From positions 1 to 64,000 of the forward strand of contig JASFQK010000034.1 of assembly GCA_050115495.1 (NCBI GenBank): DNA of 64,000 bases, written 5' to 3'. Positions 22,495 to 46,355 of the stretch are shown one piece after another (the stretch's first letter is position 1; each line of letters begins with the position of its first letter). The notes below the pieces were generated by a model. It did not search any database, was not told the origin of the DNA, and worked only from the letters and a program-made list of their open reading frames with translations. The DNA is from Phycisphaerae bacterium. Lineage in GTDB: Bacteria > Planctomycetota > Phycisphaerae > UBA1845 > Fen-1342. A program made the translations under genes and the position numbers.

Positions 22495-22873
22495 GACTTG
22501 TTCCCCAGACCCGATTAGAAGTTGCAGGTGGCGGCGGCGTACACGGCCGCACCACCGACGCGAGGCATCGGCGCCCAGCGTGCCGGACGCGAGACGTCCG
22601 GGCTGGCGCGCTGAAGCGGCGCACCAACAATACAAGCCGAAACTCCTCAGGGCCCGCAACCGCTCCAATGCTAGCGCCGGAGAGGTGTCCGTCAATGTCA
22701 GGCGGGCTGCAGAGATACAACTACGACGGTGTGGAGCCAGCGGACGAGTTGACGACCGGCCGTGGGCACGCCGGAGGCGCAGACGGTTTCGCTTGAAAAA
22801 GCGGGGTGCGCGAGCTAGGCTGCTATCGCCGGATCGAGTGAGGCAGTGCATGTGTGCCGCTCGTCTGCGGTAT

Positions 22874-22947
22874 GCGCCCGTAGCTCAGTTGGACAGAGCA
22901 GCGGCCTTCTAAGCCGCGGGTCGCAGGTTCGACTCCTGCCGGGCGCG
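22874..22947 (+). tRNA. tRNA-Arg(TCT), no encoded CCA; probable prophage integration site
   Basis: Acceptor GCGCCCG/CGGGCGC, D-arm AGCTCAGTTGGACAGAGC, anticodon arm GCGGC-CTTCTAA-GCCGC, T-arm GCAGG-TTCGACT-CCTGC. Integrase starts 116 bp downstream. Confidence 0.95.
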
Positions 22948-23062
22948 ATGCTGTAAACCACGCCGAAAGCGTAACTTACGCTTTACCTCTCCCGAGGGAG
23001 GGCGCGGCAAACCGGTCCAGTTGCGCGGAGCGCGCTCCGCGCAACTCACGGAGAGCCGCACA

Positions 23063-24250
23063 ATGCCACGCCAATCTGCCCCGCCCGCATACCGTAAACG
23101 CCTTATCCGTGGTCGCGAAGTCGCCTTTGTCACCCTTCGGGACCCCGAAACGGGCCGTCGGCGCGATTACTGGCTCGGCGCCTACGGCACCCCCGAGAGC
23201 CGAGCTGCGTACGCCCGCATCCTCGCCGACTGGGAGTCGCGCGGCCGGCGGCTCCCGGACGCCCGGGGTCCGCTGCGCCCCGCTGACGGCGTCACAACCA
23301 CACAGATCGTCGCGGCCTACTGGCAGCACTTGCAGGCGACGAAGCCCGGGAGACAGTCCGCTATGACTCGCACGCGGCTGAAGTCCTGGCGCGCCCACTA
23401 CGGCAACATCGCGGCCGGCCAGATCGGCCCGGTCCTGCTGAACGGCTGGCGAAAGGCGGAGTTGGCCCAGCATTCGGTGGATTGGGTGGCCCGAGGGACG
23501 ACGGCTGTGCTTGCGTTGTACCGCTGGGCCGTGGCCAACGAACTGGTCCCGGTCGACACCTACCAGCGGCTGAAAACGGTCGAGCCATTGCGGCACGTAA
23601 AACGTAAGCGCGTACTCCCGGCTCCCGACGCCGCGATCGCGGCCGTGCGGAAGCTCGTGGGCCGCCAGGTCGGGGCGATGATCGACCTCCAGCTCGTCAC
23701 CGGCATGCGCCCCGGCGAGGTTGTCGTCATGCGGCCCTGCGACATCGACATGTCCGAGAAGGTGTGGGTCTACCGGCTCGACTCGCACAAGACGGCATAC
23801 CGGGGACGGGAGCGGGTCGTCTATCTCGGCCCGCAGGCGCAGGAGATCTTGCGGCCGTTCCTGCGGGGGCGGGCCACGACGGCCCATTGCTTCTCGCCAG
23901 TGGAGGCCGAGGCTGAGTGGCGGCTCGAACGGCGCAAGGCGCGCAAGACGCCCCTGTCGTGTGGGAACCGCCCTGGCACCAACCGGCAGGCTCGCCCCCA
24001 ACGAAGGCCGGGTGCCGCGTACACGACGCGCACGTACGGACAGGCCGTCGAGCGGGCCTGCCAACGAGCAGGCGCAGGCCATTGGTCTCCGCACCAGCTT
24101 CGGCACAACTATGCGACAGAGGTTCGCCGGCGGTATGGGCTCGAGGCCGCCCGGATCCTGCTCGGCCACTGCTCGGCGCTCGTTACCGAAGCTGTCTACG
24201 CCGAGCGCGATCAGGCGGCGGCCATGCGGATCGCGGCCGAGATCGGCTAG
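23063..24250 (+). CDS. Tyrosine recombinase / phage integrase
   Basis: Catalytic set TGMRPGE, HKT, HQLRH, LLGH, VY. Confidence 0.93.
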   Translation: MPRQSAPPAYRKRLIRGREVAFVTLRDPETGRRRDYWLGAYGTPESRAAYARILADWESRGRRLPDARGPLRPADGVTTTQIVAAYWQHLQATKPGRQSAMTRTRLKSWRAHYGNIAAGQIGPVLLNGWRKAELAQHSVDWVARGTTAVLALYRWAVANELVPVDTYQRLKTVEPLRHVKRKRVLPAPDAAIAAVRKLVGRQVGAMIDLQLVTGMRPGEVVVMRPCDIDMSEKVWVYRLDSHKTAYRGRERVVYLGPQAQEILRPFLRGRATTAHCFSPVEAEAEWRLERRKARKTPLSCGNRPGTNRQARPQRRPGAAYTTRTYGQAVERACQRAGAGHWSPHQLRHNYATEVRRRYGLEAARILLGHCSALVTEAVYAERDQAAAMRIAAEIG

Positions 24251-24374
24251 CGGGGCCCGCAGAACCCGGCTAGGGCGCGCGATCGGGACTGAGGCGGTAC
24301 GCCTGGTCGCCCCCGATGCGCCACGGGCCAGCAAACGCGTCGCGCAACGGCGCGCGAAAAACGCGAAGGCGGCC

Positions 24375-24402
24375 TTGACGCGTGCGGCCGGGACGGTAGG
24401 GT
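24375..24402 (+). promoter_or_regulatory. Putative sigma70-type promoter
   Basis: TTGACG-N16-TAGGGT upstream of the structured RNA and small ORF. Confidence 0.45.
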
Positions 24403-24474
24403 GGCGGGCGATATGAATCGGGAAAGTTCATCTCAGACGCCCCCATGGCGCGCGCCTGCGCGCCGTATGAACGA

Positions 24475-24547
24475 CCCCACGCTGACCTGCGGGGACCGGC
24501 GACGGCCCGACCGCCTTTCCCGGGCGGATATCCAGATCAGCGTGGGG
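24475..24547 (+). ncRNA. Candidate three-way-junction antisense RNA (P4 CI / P1 C4-like architecture)
   Basis: Perfect 11-bp stalk CCCCACGCTGA/TCAGCGTGGGG, GCGA-tetraloop hairpin, CCGCC-TTTCCCG-GGCGG hairpin and ATATC bulge; complementary sites at 24410-24426 and 24749-24759. Confidence 0.55.
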
Positions 24548-24567
24548 CTGTTCGTTTGGAGGCCCCC

Positions 24568-24768
24568 ATGCCTGCCTTGGATGAGTACAGCCAACTCCCC
24601 CTATCCGAGCTGGTCAGGAGTCTGAACGACGTCGGCAGCGAGACAGTCACAATCGAGATGATCAAGGCCGACATTGCCGCTGGTGCGCCGACGAATCGCG
24701 ACGGGACGATCAACCTCATCGACTACACCGCATGGCTCGCGGCCCAGCGGATCGGGAAAAGACCTTGA
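24568..24768 (+). CDS. Small HTH-like protein, paralogue of the putative small terminase at 46143
   Basis: GGAGG RBS; 29/48 identities to the 46143 product (AAGAPTN.DGT.NLI.Y.AWL). Confidence 0.75.
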   Translation: MPALDEYSQLPLSELVRSLNDVGSETVTIEMIKADIAAGAPTNRDGTINLIDYTAWLAAQRIGKRP

Positions 24769-24793
24769 CCGGACAGATGACGAACATTAACCT
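24765..24793 (+). promoter_or_regulatory. Putative sigma70-type promoter
   Basis: TTGACC-N17-TAACCT. Confidence 0.45.
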
Positions 24794-25018
24794 AACACAT
24801 GATCGCTCGCCGCGTGGGCAAGAGGGGCGGCGAGACTCGCGATTCAGGCCAATTACTCTGGCGGCTGACAGGGAATCGCTGGCCATGGAGGGCCGACGCC
24901 GGAGGGGAGTTATGCTGCCGGGGCAAGCCGCATGTACTGGGCCATTACAGAAACGGCCAACGATTGTGTGGCAACACAACCGTCGGCCTGACCGTAGGAA
25001 CCTTGTGAGGAGGTTCCC

Positions 25019-25414
25019 GTGGCTGGGGATATTGTACCACCGCCGCATGGCGGATGCGCGACGATATGGGAACGGCCGGATGATCCGTCGCTGAGGCGCC
25101 TGATTGAGCGTTGGCCATCGCTCTCGCAGGCTGTCAAGTGCGGCATTCTGGCTATGGTTGATGCGATTGCCGAGGTGCGCCCGTGGATTACGAGTGCAGA
25201 AGCGGCTCGGCTGCACGTTACGGACATGCGGCCCGCGCTCGACGACGAGGACGCACGAGCCTTACTCCTGGCCGCGAAGAAACGGATCAGTCGTGCGTGC
25301 CAGTCTGGACAGGTGCGATGTACTGGCGTCGGCTTCGACAGGCGGGTTGACCCCGACAGTCTCGACGCATGGCGCATTCACATGCGACAGCGTGATCTGA
25401 ACCGGGAGAACTGA
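25019..25414 (+). CDS. Hypothetical DNA-binding (excisionase-like HTH) protein
   Basis: GAGGAGG RBS; WITSAEAARL...RRVDPDSLDAWR resembles MerR/Xis-type wHTH. Confidence 0.55.
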   Translation: MAGDIVPPPHGGCATIWERPDDPSLRRLIERWPSLSQAVKCGILAMVDAIAEVRPWITSAEAARLHVTDMRPALDDEDARALLLAAKKRISRACQSGQVRCTGVGFDRRVDPDSLDAWRIHMRQRDLNREN

Positions 25415-25437
25415 CCCTGCTGACGTCACTGGAACGT

Positions 25438-26421
25438 TCAGCGTTCAATCATGTCTGCCGGAATTTCGAAGCGGATCATTCCGGTTCCGCCGAAGTTGTC
25501 GGCAGGCAGCTCCAGCCGTAAGTATTCGAAACCGTCCACTGGTCGCTCAAATACCAGCACATCCTGCAGTGACGTTCCAGGGTACAGCGATTCTCGCTCT
25601 ATAGCATTCTCTGCGCGAGTGCTGACACCGAAGCTGATTCTCTTGTATGTATTGCCGTGCTTGTCTCGGATGACGGCGTAGTCTCTGGACAGGGAGTAAT
25701 CCCGTCCCATCCAGGTAGCAAAATCGGCCTTCTTGTTCGGGCTCCCATTCGTCACGTTGACAAGGATCCGCAGGTAGGTCTCGCTCGATTTCCAGGGCGA
25801 CGAATGGGCGCGAATGGTGTCGACCAGGTCGACCTCGCCTATTCTCGCCGACAGTACCGCTATTCGCATATCTCCGCTTGCGACGATTTCTCCGGCCTTC
25901 GTCCACGCGCTGGGTGTCGTTGAGGCTTTGGCCCGTTCGATGATCGCTGATGTGCTCTTGCGGACCGGCGCGGCGGCTACCGACCATGCGATCCAAATGG
26001 CCAAACCAGAGACAAGCACTCCGGCCAGCGGATACCCTACAGCAGCCGCCCGGCGTTTGATGGCTATCAAGAGACCGATCAATCCGAACAGCAACCCTAG
26101 GCCACTAATCGGCATTGATACGATGCCTATTATTGGAATCCAGCAAACCACAAACGCCAACAGTCCGAATATCAGCGACACAATACCAAAGCTGGACGTG
26201 CGCTTCGGAAGATGCACGTTGAGCGCTGGCACCTGTGGATCATGCCCAGGAGTGCTTCGCTGGACAGAAGGCTGGACCACTGACGGCATGCGATTGACCG
26301 TTGCCACCACCATGTTCCGCCTGTTGGCCACAGCCTCCGCGGCGACTTCGTCCGCGGCATCGATGACGATTTCGACAGCTTCCCCGGTCTCCCGGTCTGC
26401 CCCGTTGACCTGAAACTTCAC
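25438..26421 (-). CDS. Membrane protein with three TM helices and an extracytoplasmic Ig-like (DUF4352-like) domain; possible superinfection exclusion factor
   Basis: GGAGG RBS before GTG; hydrophobic FGIVSLIFGLLAFVVCWIP... segments; C-terminal D..GNTY...LYPG...DVLVFE...LRLELP; lower GC. Confidence 0.7.
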   Translation of the reverse strand: MKFQVNGADRETGEAVEIVIDAADEVAAEAVANRRNMVVATVNRMPSVVQPSVQRSTPGHDPQVPALNVHLPKRTSSFGIVSLIFGLLAFVVCWIPIIGIVSMPISGLGLLFGLIGLLIAIKRRAAAVGYPLAGVLVSGLAIWIAWSVAAAPVRKSTSAIIERAKASTTPSAWTKAGEIVASGDMRIAVLSARIGEVDLVDTIRAHSSPWKSSETYLRILVNVTNGSPNKKADFATWMGRDYSLSRDYAVIRDKHGNTYKRISFGVSTRAENAIERESLYPGTSLQDVLVFERPVDGFEYLRLELPADNFGGTGMIRFEIPADMIER

Positions 26422-26647
26422 CGTGTACCTCCGACCTAGTCCCCAAGTGGAGCGCCTTGCGCACTCGCACAATCATTCTACATGAAAAGGCGGGGTTCGT
26501 GGCAAGCCCCGTTGGTCACACCAAGACGGTTGGGGCGGAATCGAAACTTTGTTTTTCGACGTAACCCAATATGGGACACGGACTTGTGTAACTGTTCGTG
26601 GATGTCGCCGAGGGACACTCGCCGAGCCACCCGTACAACCGCCCGCG

Positions 26648-26866
26648 ATGGACGCGACGCACGCAACACGATGCAAGGCCACGCAGGCCGCGATTGCTGA
26701 GGGCCGGGTGCCCACCGGCTGGCGGCCTGACGCGTGGGCCGCGCGGTTGCGGCAGCTCGCGGACGCCTGCCGAGCACTCCACCCCGAACGTGCCGCCGAC
26801 CTCGTGGCCTGGGCCACGGCGGTCGAGCGCGCCCAAGGAGCCGACGTATGCCCGCCGCACGAGTAG
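26648..26866 (+). CDS. Hypothetical phage protein
   Basis: First ORF of the rightward early operon, overlapping the next start. Confidence 0.5.
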   Translation: MDATHATRCKATQAAIAEGRVPTGWRPDAWAARLRQLADACRALHPERAADLVAWATAVERAQGADVCPPHE

Positions 26867-27213
26867 CCGCTGCTCGGGAACCTGCCGCACGAGTATCAGC
26901 CGTGTCATTCATGACGCTCGAAGAGGCCACGCGGTGGATCCCGCGGCGGTTCTCGGCGGCCACGATCTGGCGCTGGATTCGGTACGGGCTCACCACGTCA
27001 TCCGGCACGGTCGTGAAGCTGCGCCACCTGCAAATCGGCAGGCGGATGTTCACGACGGCCGCCTGGCTCCAGGAGTTCTTCGACGCTCTGACCGCAGCCG
27101 CCGACCAGGCGTTTCAGGGGAGATCCAAGCGCCGGCCGCAACGGAAAACGCGGAAGACGCGGAAGACGCGACGCACCGCTACCCGACAAAGGAGGCTCGC
27201 CCGTTATGCCTGA
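26848..27213 (+). CDS. Planctomycete HTH protein (DUF1580-like)
   Basis: TLEEA...SAATIWRWIRYG...KLRHLQIGRRMFTTAAWLQEFF. Confidence 0.7.
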   Translation: MPAARVAAAREPAARVSAVSFMTLEEATRWIPRRFSAATIWRWIRYGLTTSSGTVVKLRHLQIGRRMFTTAAWLQEFFDALTAAADQAFQGRSKRRPQRKTRKTRKTRRTATRQRRLARYA

Positions 27214-27496
27214 GGACTACATCAGCCTCGCCCAAGCGGCGCAACGCACGCCGAGCCGGGTTTCGCCGGCGACGGTCTGGCGCTGGGCGCGACGCGGCGT
27301 GAAGTCGCGGATCGGCAAAATGATCCAACTGCAGCACGTGCGGGTGGGTGGGCGGGTCTTCACGAAGCAGCGGTGGCTGGACGAGTTCTTCGCCGCCGTC
27401 GCCGCGGCGGATCTGGAGCACCAGAACCGCATCCTGGCGCCGCAGGCCCCGCCGCACGACGAGGCCGAGGCCATGCTGAAGGAGGCGGGGCTGTGA
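27206..27496 (+). CDS. Planctomycete HTH protein (DUF1580-like), tandem paralogue
   Basis: ISLAQAA...SPATVWRWARRG...QLQHVRVGGRVFTKQRWLDEFF. Confidence 0.75.
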   Translation: MPEDYISLAQAAQRTPSRVSPATVWRWARRGVKSRIGKMIQLQHVRVGGRVFTKQRWLDEFFAAVAAADLEHQNRILAPQAPPHDEAEAMLKEAGL

Positions 27497-28395
27497 GCGA
27501 AGCACTGATCCGACTTGGTCAAGGCGACTACCAGCACGACGTGCATCCGGAGGACCTCAACATGCCCGGTGATGACAACCACGAAACACCGCAGCTCGAC
27601 CTGCGCTTTCTGATCCGCGAGCCCGCCGACGTGTACCACGCGCGGACGGGCGACCTGCTGACTTCGCATACGCTGAACGACTTCCGCCGCTGCCCGCTGC
27701 TGTTCCGCAAGAAGGGCCTCGGCCTGGTGCCGGAGCGCGACTCGGCGGCGTATCAGATCGGGCGGGCGGCGCATGCCCTGATCCTCGAAGGCCGCGAGCG
27801 CTACGAGCGCGAGTTCGCGGTCGGCGGACCCATCAACCCGAAGACGGGCCAGCCCTTCGGCTCGCAGACGAAGGCCTTCGCCGAGTGGGCGGAGCGGCAG
27901 GGTAAGCCGGTGCTCAGCGACATCCAGGCGGCGCTGGTCGAGCAGATGGCGGCGGCCGTGCGGGAGCACGCCGTGGCCGCGGCGCTGCTCGCCGCCGGCG
28001 TGGCCGAAGGCGTGGTGCGGGCCTGCTACGGCGGGATGCCCAGTCAGGCCCGGCTCGACTGGCTCAACCCCAGCACGGACGCCGGCATCGTCGACCTGAA
28101 GACCTGCGACCACCTGGACGAGTTCGAGCTGGCGATTCGCACGTACGACTACGTGCATCAGGTGGCGTTCTACCGGGCGCTGGTCGCGCTGGTCAGCGGA
28201 CACGTCCTGCCGGTGCACATCATCGCCGTCGAGAAGCGCGAGCCGTTCCGGTGCGGCGTGTGGCGCGTGCTGCCGTCGGTGCTGGACGAGGCCCAGCGCC
28301 AGAACGAAGCGGCGATGGCCGAGCTGCAAGGCTGCCGGACGACCGGCAACTGGTTCACCCGTTACGAGGCGCTGCGTGTGATTGACCGCTTGTGA
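27493..28395 (+). CDS. PD-(D/E)XK exonuclease (RecE/ExoVIII-like)
   Basis: IGRAAHALILEG, ARLDWL, IVDLKT, Y..Q.AFY, IAVEKREP. Confidence 0.85.
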   Translation: MSEALIRLGQGDYQHDVHPEDLNMPGDDNHETPQLDLRFLIREPADVYHARTGDLLTSHTLNDFRRCPLLFRKKGLGLVPERDSAAYQIGRAAHALILEGRERYEREFAVGGPINPKTGQPFGSQTKAFAEWAERQGKPVLSDIQAALVEQMAAAVREHAVAAALLAAGVAEGVVRACYGGMPSQARLDWLNPSTDAGIVDLKTCDHLDEFELAIRTYDYVHQVAFYRALVALVSGHVLPVHIIAVEKREPFRCGVWRVLPSVLDEAQRQNEAAMAELQGCRTTGNWFTRYEALRVIDRL

Positions 28396-41024: not shown

Positions 41025-43472
41025 GTGCGCCTGATGTATCGCGTTGCTGCGTAAGGAATTACGAGCATGCGAGAGACCTTGTTGGCAATGTTTGGAAGCA
41101 AACCGTGGCCGTTTGGCCGGCCATTGTACCTAGGGAGTAAGTTGGCCAGCACGTGTGAGCTGGCTGGCGACATAGCTCTCCCGACAACGTGGGACCCAGG
41201 TGAGGCTTCACAACCGATGCAGTCCTGCCAGGTAGAGCTTCCGCACGACTACGAAAGGAACCGACCAATACCTTCGGGAAAGTGGGCCCCCATTCCTGCG
41301 AATACTGGAGCCGCCCGGGAGTACCCCGCCCGGGCTAGGGAATGGCCCAAGCGGGCAAGCGCTATCGTTGTAGGCGCATGCCCTGGCGAATCGCTTCGGC
41401 GATTCCGAGGTCGGCGGAGTGGTCAACTATCCGCCGGTGCTTGGGGGAGCAGCGGAGAGCTGTTGGGTATCGAAAGGTCGGAGTCTACCCGGAAGCGTTT
41501 GAGTGCCAGCAAGGGAACCAGGGAAGCCCAGCCGAGTATGGCAGTCGCACAGATAGGCCGCCTTCGGGCGGCTGAATCTCTGCCGATGAGGCGGCTGGGT
41601 GGCGGAGCGTCCGTAGTAGTCCGAGGACGGGAAAACCGTCTACATGGCGAAGGGACGCAGGATGTTTCGTTCTGGACGGCCAAGGCGTTCGTCAATCGCG
41701 AGGGCTCGCGATGAACGTGGCGGAAGTCCAGAGAAGGCTGTGGGAGCAATCCGGCTCGCATCGGCAATTGCGTGCATCCGGGACACCGCTGTTCCCCACC
41801 AACCCGTATGACGGGCGCGTGCGGAACCTGATGGACCTGATGCACCACCCGCACTGGCTGCGGGATGCGGCCGACCGCGTGCTGAGGCGGTCCCACAACA
41901 AAGCGCCGGGCGTAGACGGCGTGACTGCACGCGAGTTCCGCAAGGGGCTCGACGGCAAGCTCGAATGTCTGCGCCTGGAATTGAAGCGTGGAACGTACCA
42001 ACCCCAACCCGTGCGGCGGGTGATGATCCCGAAGGCCAACGGCAAACTGCGGCCTCTGGGCATCCCCTGTCTACGGGACAAGATCGTCCAGGAAGCCATC
42101 CGCATGGCGCTGGAACCGATCTTCGAGGTGGAGTTCCACGATCATTCGTACGGGTTCCGGCCTCACCGAAGCACGCACCATGCCGTTTTCCGTTGTCAGC
42201 ACCTGATGAAGCACGGCTTCACCTGGGTGATTGAGGGAGATGTCAAGGCATGCTTCGATGAGATCTCGCACCGGTCCATCCTGCGGGCCGTGCGGGAGAA
42301 GGTCATGGACAACAAGTTCCTCGCGCTGATCCACCGGTTCCTCAAGGCTGGTGTGGAGGTCGAGGGCATTGTCCAGCCGACCGAGAAAGGCGTACCCCAG
42401 GGTGGCGTGATCTCACCGCTGCTGGCCAATGCGGTCCTGAACAAGCTGGACTGGTTCCTGCACAGTAAGGGCACGCACGAGCAGGCCATGATGCGGGCCG
42501 CCCGCAACCGGCGGCCGAATGTTCGGTTCGTGCGGTATGCGGACGACTGGTGCGTCTTCGTCACGCGGGCGTCGCGGCGCTATGCCGAAACGCTGCGCGA
42601 TGACATCCGCGAGTTCCTTCGACGCGAATGCGGCCTGGAACTCTCGGTGGAGAAGACACACGTCACGCACGTCCAGGATGGGTATGACTTCCTCGGCTTC
42701 CGCCTGAGCTATGAAATCGGCCAAGGCGGTAAGCGGGTGCCGAAGATCAAGGTTGGTCTGAAGGCCCTGGCGAACGTGAAACAGCGGCTGCATGACGCGC
42801 TGCGGAATCGCCCCCACCAGGAATCGGTGGCCCTGCGGTTGCAGCGTGGCTCGGCGGTCGTGCGCGGGTGGTCGGAATACTTCCGTATCGCCCACAACTT
42901 CACGGACCTTGCTGGAACGTTGGATCATCATGCGCTCTGGATCGCCCTAAAGGGTATCTGTCGCAAGTTCGACATCCCTACGGGCACGGCCATGAAGCGG
43001 TACTACCGTCGCGGCGGACTCCAGGTTGACGACCTCTGCCGCTTGGAGACGTTCAGCGGATTTTCGATGAAGCTGGACTATCGCGGACCAGAACCGTACA
43101 TGCCCGGCCAGGGCGACTATGAGACTGACGCCGAGATGGAAGCGGCGTTCGCGCAGTTCAATGAACGCCGGCGCCTGGGGAACCTGGACGCGAAATACCG
43201 CGCCTTACAGCGTGACGGCTATCGCTGTCGCGCTTGTGGGAAACGGGTTACGGACCGGAACTCCCAGGCGGACCACATCGTCCCCGTACATCGCTTTGCG
43301 AGCTTCGCCCTGGCGACCACCGATGAGAACCTCCAGACCTTGTGCCTGGATTGTCACCGGGAGAAGCACAGTGCGTAGCAGAGCCGAGAATCATCTGGAG
43401 AGCCGGATGCACGGAAACGTGCAAGTCCGGTTCGGGGTTGGGGTCGGGATGCAATCTCCCGGCCTACACCAC
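41025..43472 (+). mobile_element. Group II intron (IIA-like), 2448 nt
   Basis: 5' GTGCG; domain V GAGCCGGATGCACGGAAACGTGCAAGTCCGGTTC (43400-43433) with AGC triad; domain VI ending ...ACACCAC. Removal restores the frame DPPYG|VRVEPRSNNAIAAG. Confidence 0.93.
41711..43378 (+). CDS. ltrA: Intron-encoded reverse transcriptase/maturase with HNH endonuclease
   Basis: [70 protein letters not shown]-terminal [23 protein letters not shown]. Confidence 0.96.
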
Positions 43473-46142: not shown

Positions 46143-46355
46143 ATGGACGGAGCGGAAGCGAGGCTGAACCCCGCGGCTCTGCCGCTGGCCGACGCCGCCC
46201 GGCTGCTGTCGGCGGCCGGCGGTCAGGCGGTCACGGTCGAGATGCTGGAGGCCGACGTGGCCGCCGGGGCCCCGACGAACGCGGACGGAACGCTGAATCT
46301 GATCCGCTACGCCGCGTGGCTGGTGAAGGAGATGGCCGGCGGAGGGCTATCGTGA
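46143..46355 (+). CDS. Putative terminase small subunit (Nu1-like HTH)
   Basis: GGAGG RBS; position upstream of the GpA terminase; GAP...DG..NL...AW resembles Nu1-type wHTH. Confidence 0.55.
   Translation: MDGAEARLNPAALPLADAARLLSAAGGQAVTVEMLEADVAAGAPTNADGTLNLIRYAAWLVKEMAGGGLS

Follow-up and report, generated by a model that had tools for sequence, protein, structure and literature searches.

The C4 antisense RNA of phages P1 and P7 is about 77 nt long with three stems and binds a bipartite target through its two unpaired elements, of which the loop determines the specificity (PMC5320573); a motif for an upstream target, c4-a1b1, exists for C4 (PMC2864571). In P4 CI and Gifsy-1 IsrK, a promoter, a 5' complementary site and the structured RNA are combined in one leader (PMC4825925, PMC3632133). 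The Rfam family c4-2 (RF02944, clan CL00128) was reported by Weinberg et al. in 2017 (PMC5737381), the main text of which presents it only as a likely distant homolog of a known RNA; the supplement of that paper may bear on c4-2 targets and hosts. The comparison with the C4/CI leaders also draws on PMC11701678 and PMC5499578. The literature consulted holds no description of the present RNA in planctomycetes.

The window analysed here is a stretch of 64,000 nucleotides from a Phycisphaerae bacterium (contig C34), in which a prophage starts at a tRNA-Arg gene and continues with an integrase and later the replication, gpA-type terminase, portal and capsid genes. The original prediction had proposed, from the letters of the sequence, an antisense-RNA switch of the P4 CI/P1 C4 type beside the integrase in a prophage, and both the setting and the individual parts were recovered at their places (Table 1). 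The promoter-like hexamers TTGACG (24375) and TAGGGT (24397), separated by N16, score 8/12 and are unlisted by a consensus scan. The bipartite site GATAT-gaat-CGGGAAAG is present at 24410-24426, and its loop complement itself occupies a hairpin loop in the predicted fold. The 73-nt fold, with its 11-bp stalk and both hairpins, has a predicted energy of -44.4 kcal/mol (z -4.3, with 1/200 shuffles as good), and the loop, the bulge and the 66-aa ORF with its GGAT-CGGGAAA were likewise present as claimed. The proposed complementarity of the two unpaired parts holds for the upstream site, but at the downstream site only 3 nt face the bulge proper and the fourth pairs a base of the stem. Bipartite complements on both sides were observed for 6 of 22,310 comparable hairpins genome-wide, 2 of them, the window's included, at the window's strength. 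No intrinsic terminator was found 3' of the window leader.

Table 1. Features of the leader and its surroundings in the window.
Feature	Position	Strand	Remarks
tRNA-Arg(TCT)	22873..22948	+	prophage left end
Tyrosine integrase	23063..24250	+	PF00589, phrog_1
59-nt segment	24279..24337	+	resembles the post-primase region of the same phage (34919-34976; 76%)
Promoter P1	24375..24402	+	-35 TTGACG, -10 TAGGGT; inferred start about 24409-24410
5' target	24410..24426	+	bulge complement 5 nt, GAA spacer, loop complement 7-8 nt
Anti-Shine-Dalgarno position	24439..24445	+	degenerate in window copy, intact in ortholog L099
GC-rich hairpin without U-tract	24445..24466	+	found in most long-leader homologs
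Outer stem around RNA	24467..24555	+	internal loop joins stalk; 3' side of the loop is a conserved CU
c4-2-like RNA, 73 nt	24475..24547	+	stalk, GYRA-tetraloop hairpin (24499-24502), variable loop (24516-24522), variable bulge (24528-24532)
Shine-Dalgarno GGAGG of orf66	24558..24562	+	
orf66, 66 aa	24568..24768	+	paralog of small gene 5' of terminase (46143-46355); predicted fold resembling the lambda TerS DNA-binding domain
Downstream partial complement, 7+3/4 nt	24749..24759	+	GGAT-CGGGAAA
Second promoter-like site	24765..24793	+	TTGACC-N17-TAACCT, before orf131

Homologs of the RNA were identified with successive covariance models. A model made from the single window sequence gave 5 strong homologs among 72 genomes of the family, and a second model matched 11/72 genomes of the family and 23/151 of the order, yielding the 35 RNAs of the first set, from which L106 (a weak locus below the cut-off) was left out. 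The third model (R3) matched 23/101, 10/49 and 6/35 genomes in three other families of the order, and 31 new RNAs among these matches constitute the held-out set, 4 more in one genome being left out. The 66 distinct homologs analysed (35 + 31) all lie within one order; R3 found none in 130 genomes of the class outside the order or in 150 genomes of the phylum, in a filtered search with 27 candidates scored each.

The conserved fold expected in homologues was borne out by covarying stems in both sets. In the first alignment (36 rows, one of them the reverse-strand row of the window) 89.9% of the cells are paired, and in the held-out alignment (31 RNAs) 88.7%, both alignments being fitted to the model; two-sided changes occur in 31/31 pairs of the latter, against 0/500 shuffles. 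The tetraloop is GCGA, GCAA, GTGA or GTAA in 35/35 first-set RNAs, and the variable loops are all different (35/35 and 31/31). A TTG hexamer is located 33-37 nt 5' of the target in 30/32 homologs, with an overlapping TTGAC in the other 2, and the distance from target to RNA ranges from 55 to 120 nt; members with short leaders are devoid of the GC hairpin and often of a clear anti-Shine-Dalgarno (anti-SD) tract. Seven copies of the RNA were noted in a single-contig genome (G604:C1), and two tandem modules at L424:1251-1596, where the leader of the second is matched by the first RNA.

Searches by other routes returned no further members. BLASTN with 851 nt against 61 genomes retrieved orf66 paralogs only, a protein-anchored search for the RNA gave orf66 matches that were terminase-adjacent or spurious, a homolog search with orf66 returned only itself, and orf66 was found within 1.5 kb of 0/29 other integrase loci. 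Loci from a pattern scan (3 viral and 1 metagenome) were rejected as chance matches; R3 gave 0 matches among the viral loci (80 of 120 tested) and the genome loci (80 of 88 tested), and phage records held no real match. The locus L112:970-1608, which consists of tandem 138-nt structured repeats and scores weakly with the first model, was rejected as a member of the C4-like leader family.

The transcript starts with the bulge complement, followed by a GAA-type spacer and the loop complement, which together take up its first ~16 nt, at a fixed distance from the TTG -35 box. In the first set, at least 10 complementary Watson-Crick nt were observed in 28/35 cognate pairs against 20/1190 mismatched pairs, and in the held-out set in 27/30 (one contig-end locus left out) against 15/870. 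With G-U pairs allowed, at least 11 were reached in 29/32 anchored loci (three unanchored rows left out) against 24/992. Several pair types occur at every loop position, an optimistic estimate since the best register was picked for each RNA. In one genome with three copies, the stems are 92-95% identical and the keys are different, each key being matched by its own target. True misses include the closest ortholog, L099, and L131, where the key is unmatched to the own target; L125 is without a target. No extra cognate sites were found on either strand of the flanks (about 0.5 Mb; 4.0 vs 3.9 per Mb), and a candidate third site in the window (25394-25409) was rejected as it was equalled by 12/100 shuffles. 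The key and its lock vary in concert among dozens of related mobile elements, so on comparative sequence evidence the fold and its upstream target form a real RNA family, a branch of a known type of phage RNA switch that has not been catalogued.

Comparison with the catalogued RNAs places this branch close to c4-2. Both have a GGG-hairpin with a GNRA-type loop followed by a CGC/GCG hairpin, a variable loop of about 9 nt and a bulge, and the homologs agree with c4-2 in topology and core motifs, aligning across all 79 model positions with up to 40.8 bits; the planctomycete family differs in adding an outer stem, the GC hairpin and the anti-SD tract. The c4-2 model matched 7/35 first-set and 5/20 further loci with 24.7-40.8 bits, below the 41-bit gathering cut-off, above which 0/151 genomes of the order gave a match. 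Thus the suggested search with C4-type Rfam models recovered homologs at sub-threshold scores, but in the window itself the Rfam scan detected neither C4 nor c4-2 nor IsrK. At the family loci the C4 (RF01695) and IsrK models likewise gave no match, a few overlaps within the clan being suppressed unnamed. The family shares with P1/P7 C4 the three-way RNA with a covarying stalk and two hairpins, a covarying upstream bipartite target and the prophage or satellite location; it differs in having no conserved target over a downstream ribosome-binding site, and its stalk starts with CCC, in contrast to the GGW reported at the stalk start for C4 processing. The order of the leader is the same as in P4 CI (with seqA/seqC) and Gifsy-1 IsrK, from which the family differs by the absence of an IsrK-like terminator leader (no Rfam match) and of a conserved seqC, and in that its gated genes are integrases or unrelated small ORFs rather than kil/epsilon/alpha. 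The C4/CI-like architecture originally proposed therefore stands for the RNA fold and the upstream target, by covariation and the sub-threshold c4-2 matches, but not for a downstream bipartite target of the seqC/a2b2 type. Judged from these alignments, the family would operate in the manner of the P1 C4 and P4 CI leaders; its relation to c4-2 is a near-threshold one, but it falls short of the formal cut-off and of a downstream target.

The order read from the comparison is promoter, 5' target, then in most members the anti-SD tract, the GC hairpin and the RNA, with the first gene's SD directly after it. In most long leaders the tract is CCTYC-like, lies immediately 5' of the GC hairpin and is complementary to this SD. 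The predicted probability of the SD being paired to the linker is 0.64 vs 0.35 in shuffles (32 rows), and the anti-SD:SD duplex scores -9.0 vs -5.5 and -6.0 in shuffles (0/500 in both sets; 23 + 15 selected rows). Cognate tracts beat non-cognate ones in a narrow window (235 and 706 of 100,000 permutations, in 23/35 + 15/31 selected rows), and were not separated from them in a broad window (28,101/100,000). The tract of the window is weak (0.15 vs 0.21 shuffled), and in the predicted fold its SD forms a local hairpin with the beginning of orf66 instead of a helix with the degenerate anti-SD. Control at the ribosome-binding site directly after the RNA appears the more likely. Two other candidates were rejected: a leader peptide from ATG 24413, the ATG being missing in many homologs, and intrinsic termination at the GC hairpin, which has no U-tract.

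We consider it rather probable, from sequence, that the leader is a c4-2-related antisense switch with one strong target, which would give a sequence-specific shut-off by masking of the ribosome site. When the element enters a naive cell, the 5' target would first pair in cis, with the loop and bulge of the same transcript; the linker left free spans 3-13 nt, which is short relative to the roughly 21-bp stalk, so this pairing would compete with the anti-SD:SD helix and the gene would be translated. The RNA would then be cut from the long stem and accumulate; a nuclease other than RNase P is possible, given the CCC at the start of the stalk and the pairing of the leader. Accumulated RNA would occupy in trans the 5' target of new transcripts, leaving the SD masked and the gene, often an integrase, off, and an incoming element with the same key would be silenced likewise. 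This direction, with the trans RNA turning the gene off, is proposed by analogy with P1/P4, and the diversity of the keys is consistent with repression in trans and superinfection immunity. In the window, the gated product would be a TerS-like protein, with the SD hidden by the local hairpin.

The genes following the RNA are often integrases. A same-strand integrase follows within 4 kb in 17/35 first-set loci (3 of them weak 26-31% matches) and within 1.5 kb in 10/31 held-out loci, and is the first gene in 5 Pfam-confirmed first-set loci and 5/31 held-out loci. The neighbourhood often resembles that of satellites, with genes for primase/helicase, small terminase and capsid on the 5' side and a tRNA on the far side of the integrase. 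The window and L099 depart from this, the cassette lying between the integrase and orf66. The product of orf66 matches its paralog (46143-46355), encoded directly 5' of a gpA-type terminase, at 61% over 41 aa. Its AF2 model (pLDDT 88.9) gave as best structure matches the lambda TerS DNA-binding-domain entries 6HN7_B, with a middling Z of 6.4 (rmsd 2.5, 54 aligned), and 7LXS_A (Z 6.3, rmsd 1.6, 49 aligned), with excisionases at 4.8-4.9; Foldseek returned nothing at E <= 0.001, and no sequence match was found. The predicted likeness to the lambda TerS (gpNu1) DNA-binding domain and to the Rpp of PICIs would be that of a small winged-helix fold, and an interference like that of Rpp (PMC6739421) may be considered for orf66.

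The reach of the switch looks limited to the 66-aa gene, judging from the second promoter-like site that follows orf66. A similar promoter-like site lies directly 3' of the integrase in L066, which makes 24250-24764 look like an inserted unit gating one gene; the segment 24279-24337 is possibly a copy of the packaging region that arrived with the cassette. Further on, 24795-24905 is non-coding, highly conserved with L099 and predicted to be structured. Opposite the orf131 RBS, the minus strand at 24949-25025 has sub-threshold FinP (40.5 of 45 bits) and SymR matches, an extended -10-like box and a terminator-like hairpin; the signal may mirror sense structure, since L099 retains the minus-strand -10 poorly, whereas both copies retain a hairpin on the sense strand that hides the SD of orf131.

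Chance as an explanation, namely a GC-rich fold with coincidental complements, has practically no standing for the fold and the upstream target: 5 other hairpins among the 22,310 in the genome do pass the loose test, but family-wide covariation, repeated in the held-out set, refutes it. The a1b1 and seqA sites of P1 C4 and P4 CI have a decoy role. In a classical two-target arrangement of that kind, the upstream site would be the decoy and the RNA would also pair the short site in the first gene (24749-24759), leading to Rho-dependent termination. The C-rich linker, resembling a Rho loading site, and the 7+3/4 nt of the window site speak for it, as does an excess of 5-nt loop complements downstream that is confined to the sense strand (53/65 vs 64.5%; 30/20,000 permutations, with three strand controls null) and is seen in the central register (22/62 vs 12.1 expected). 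This excess, however, has no fixed position and no bulge partner and is weaker in the held-out set (p about 0.05), and downstream bipartite sites within 300 nt occur at the background rate (2/35 and 1/30) and are no family feature, so the covariation foreseen for both targets is confined to the upstream one. The flanks with their background density of cognate sites also argue against it, and in L099 the position of site 2 keeps similar coding letters under a wholly different loop, hence failing to track the loop. The arrangement is therefore considered unlikely for the family and the site 24749-24759 is probably incidental; given the weak downstream excess, a second site is still a possibility, and that it matters in the window is conceivable if rather doubtful. 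At L099:1500-1980 the orf131 homolog has, at its start codon, 7 nt that complement the loop of the L099 RNA, which may represent either a key swap or a classical downstream target.

Two further readings keep the upstream target and alter its action. In a purely cis-acting pseudoknot leader, target-loop pairing within one transcript would set translation, with neither trans RNA nor immunity. Covariation is blind to cis and trans and the sole cognate target lies in the same transcript, but keys diverge on near-identical stems, co-resident copies included, as expected for specificity groups, and the relatives C4 and CI are processed trans RNAs in the accounts cited (PMC5320573, PMC4825925), making this reading improbable. 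Less probable again is the opposite sign, in which the trans RNA would activate by opening the SD-masking fold, as IsrK activates its own mRNA in trans (PMC4825925). Most members are indeed predicted to have the SD paired by default (mean 0.84, 31 rows), but the anti-SD:SD helix stays intact in silico when the target is held unpaired, and positive feedback on an integrase would fit lysogen biology less well. The masking switch with one target is preferred to these alternatives. A more specific proposal, which we advance tentatively and at somewhat less than even likelihood, is an order-specific branch of the C4 clan that has lost the second target and become a portable, self-keyed 'first-come' switch: one 5' bipartite lock would toggle the anti-SD helix, dozens of orthogonal keys would gate satellite integrases as an RNA-based exclusion at integration, and the window copy would have been captured to gate a TerS mimic.

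Several features of the prophage and its host genome were observed besides. The 3' 43 nt of the tRNA-Arg recur on another contig (G000:C67:10730-10773), where this 3' half is a candidate right attachment site on a contig with RHS-like genes. Contigs C4, C14, C22 and C40 of G000 carry 5' remnants of the integrase family, 3 of them just after tRNA-like genes, and C39 and C63 full relatives. Between the integrase and the early operon (24250-27500), no CI-like repressor was recognised; the region contains a membrane protein (25438-26472, minus strand) and two excisionase-like HTH genes. A group II intron-type reverse transcriptase/maturase with an HNH domain (41711-43378) lies inside the prophage methylase region. 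The assignment to the phylum is supported by a structural neighbour cluster of terminases that comes mostly from Planctomycetota.

With the present analysis, c4-2-like RNAs, so far catalogued by fold, gain a target and a mechanism open to testing, and C4-type control would extend to a lineage missed by Rfam and to integrase genes. More than 60 natural key-lock pairs are available, about 2% of mismatched pairs reaching 10 nt; these would be useful for understanding how mobile elements diversify their specificity and may serve as orthogonal translation switches.
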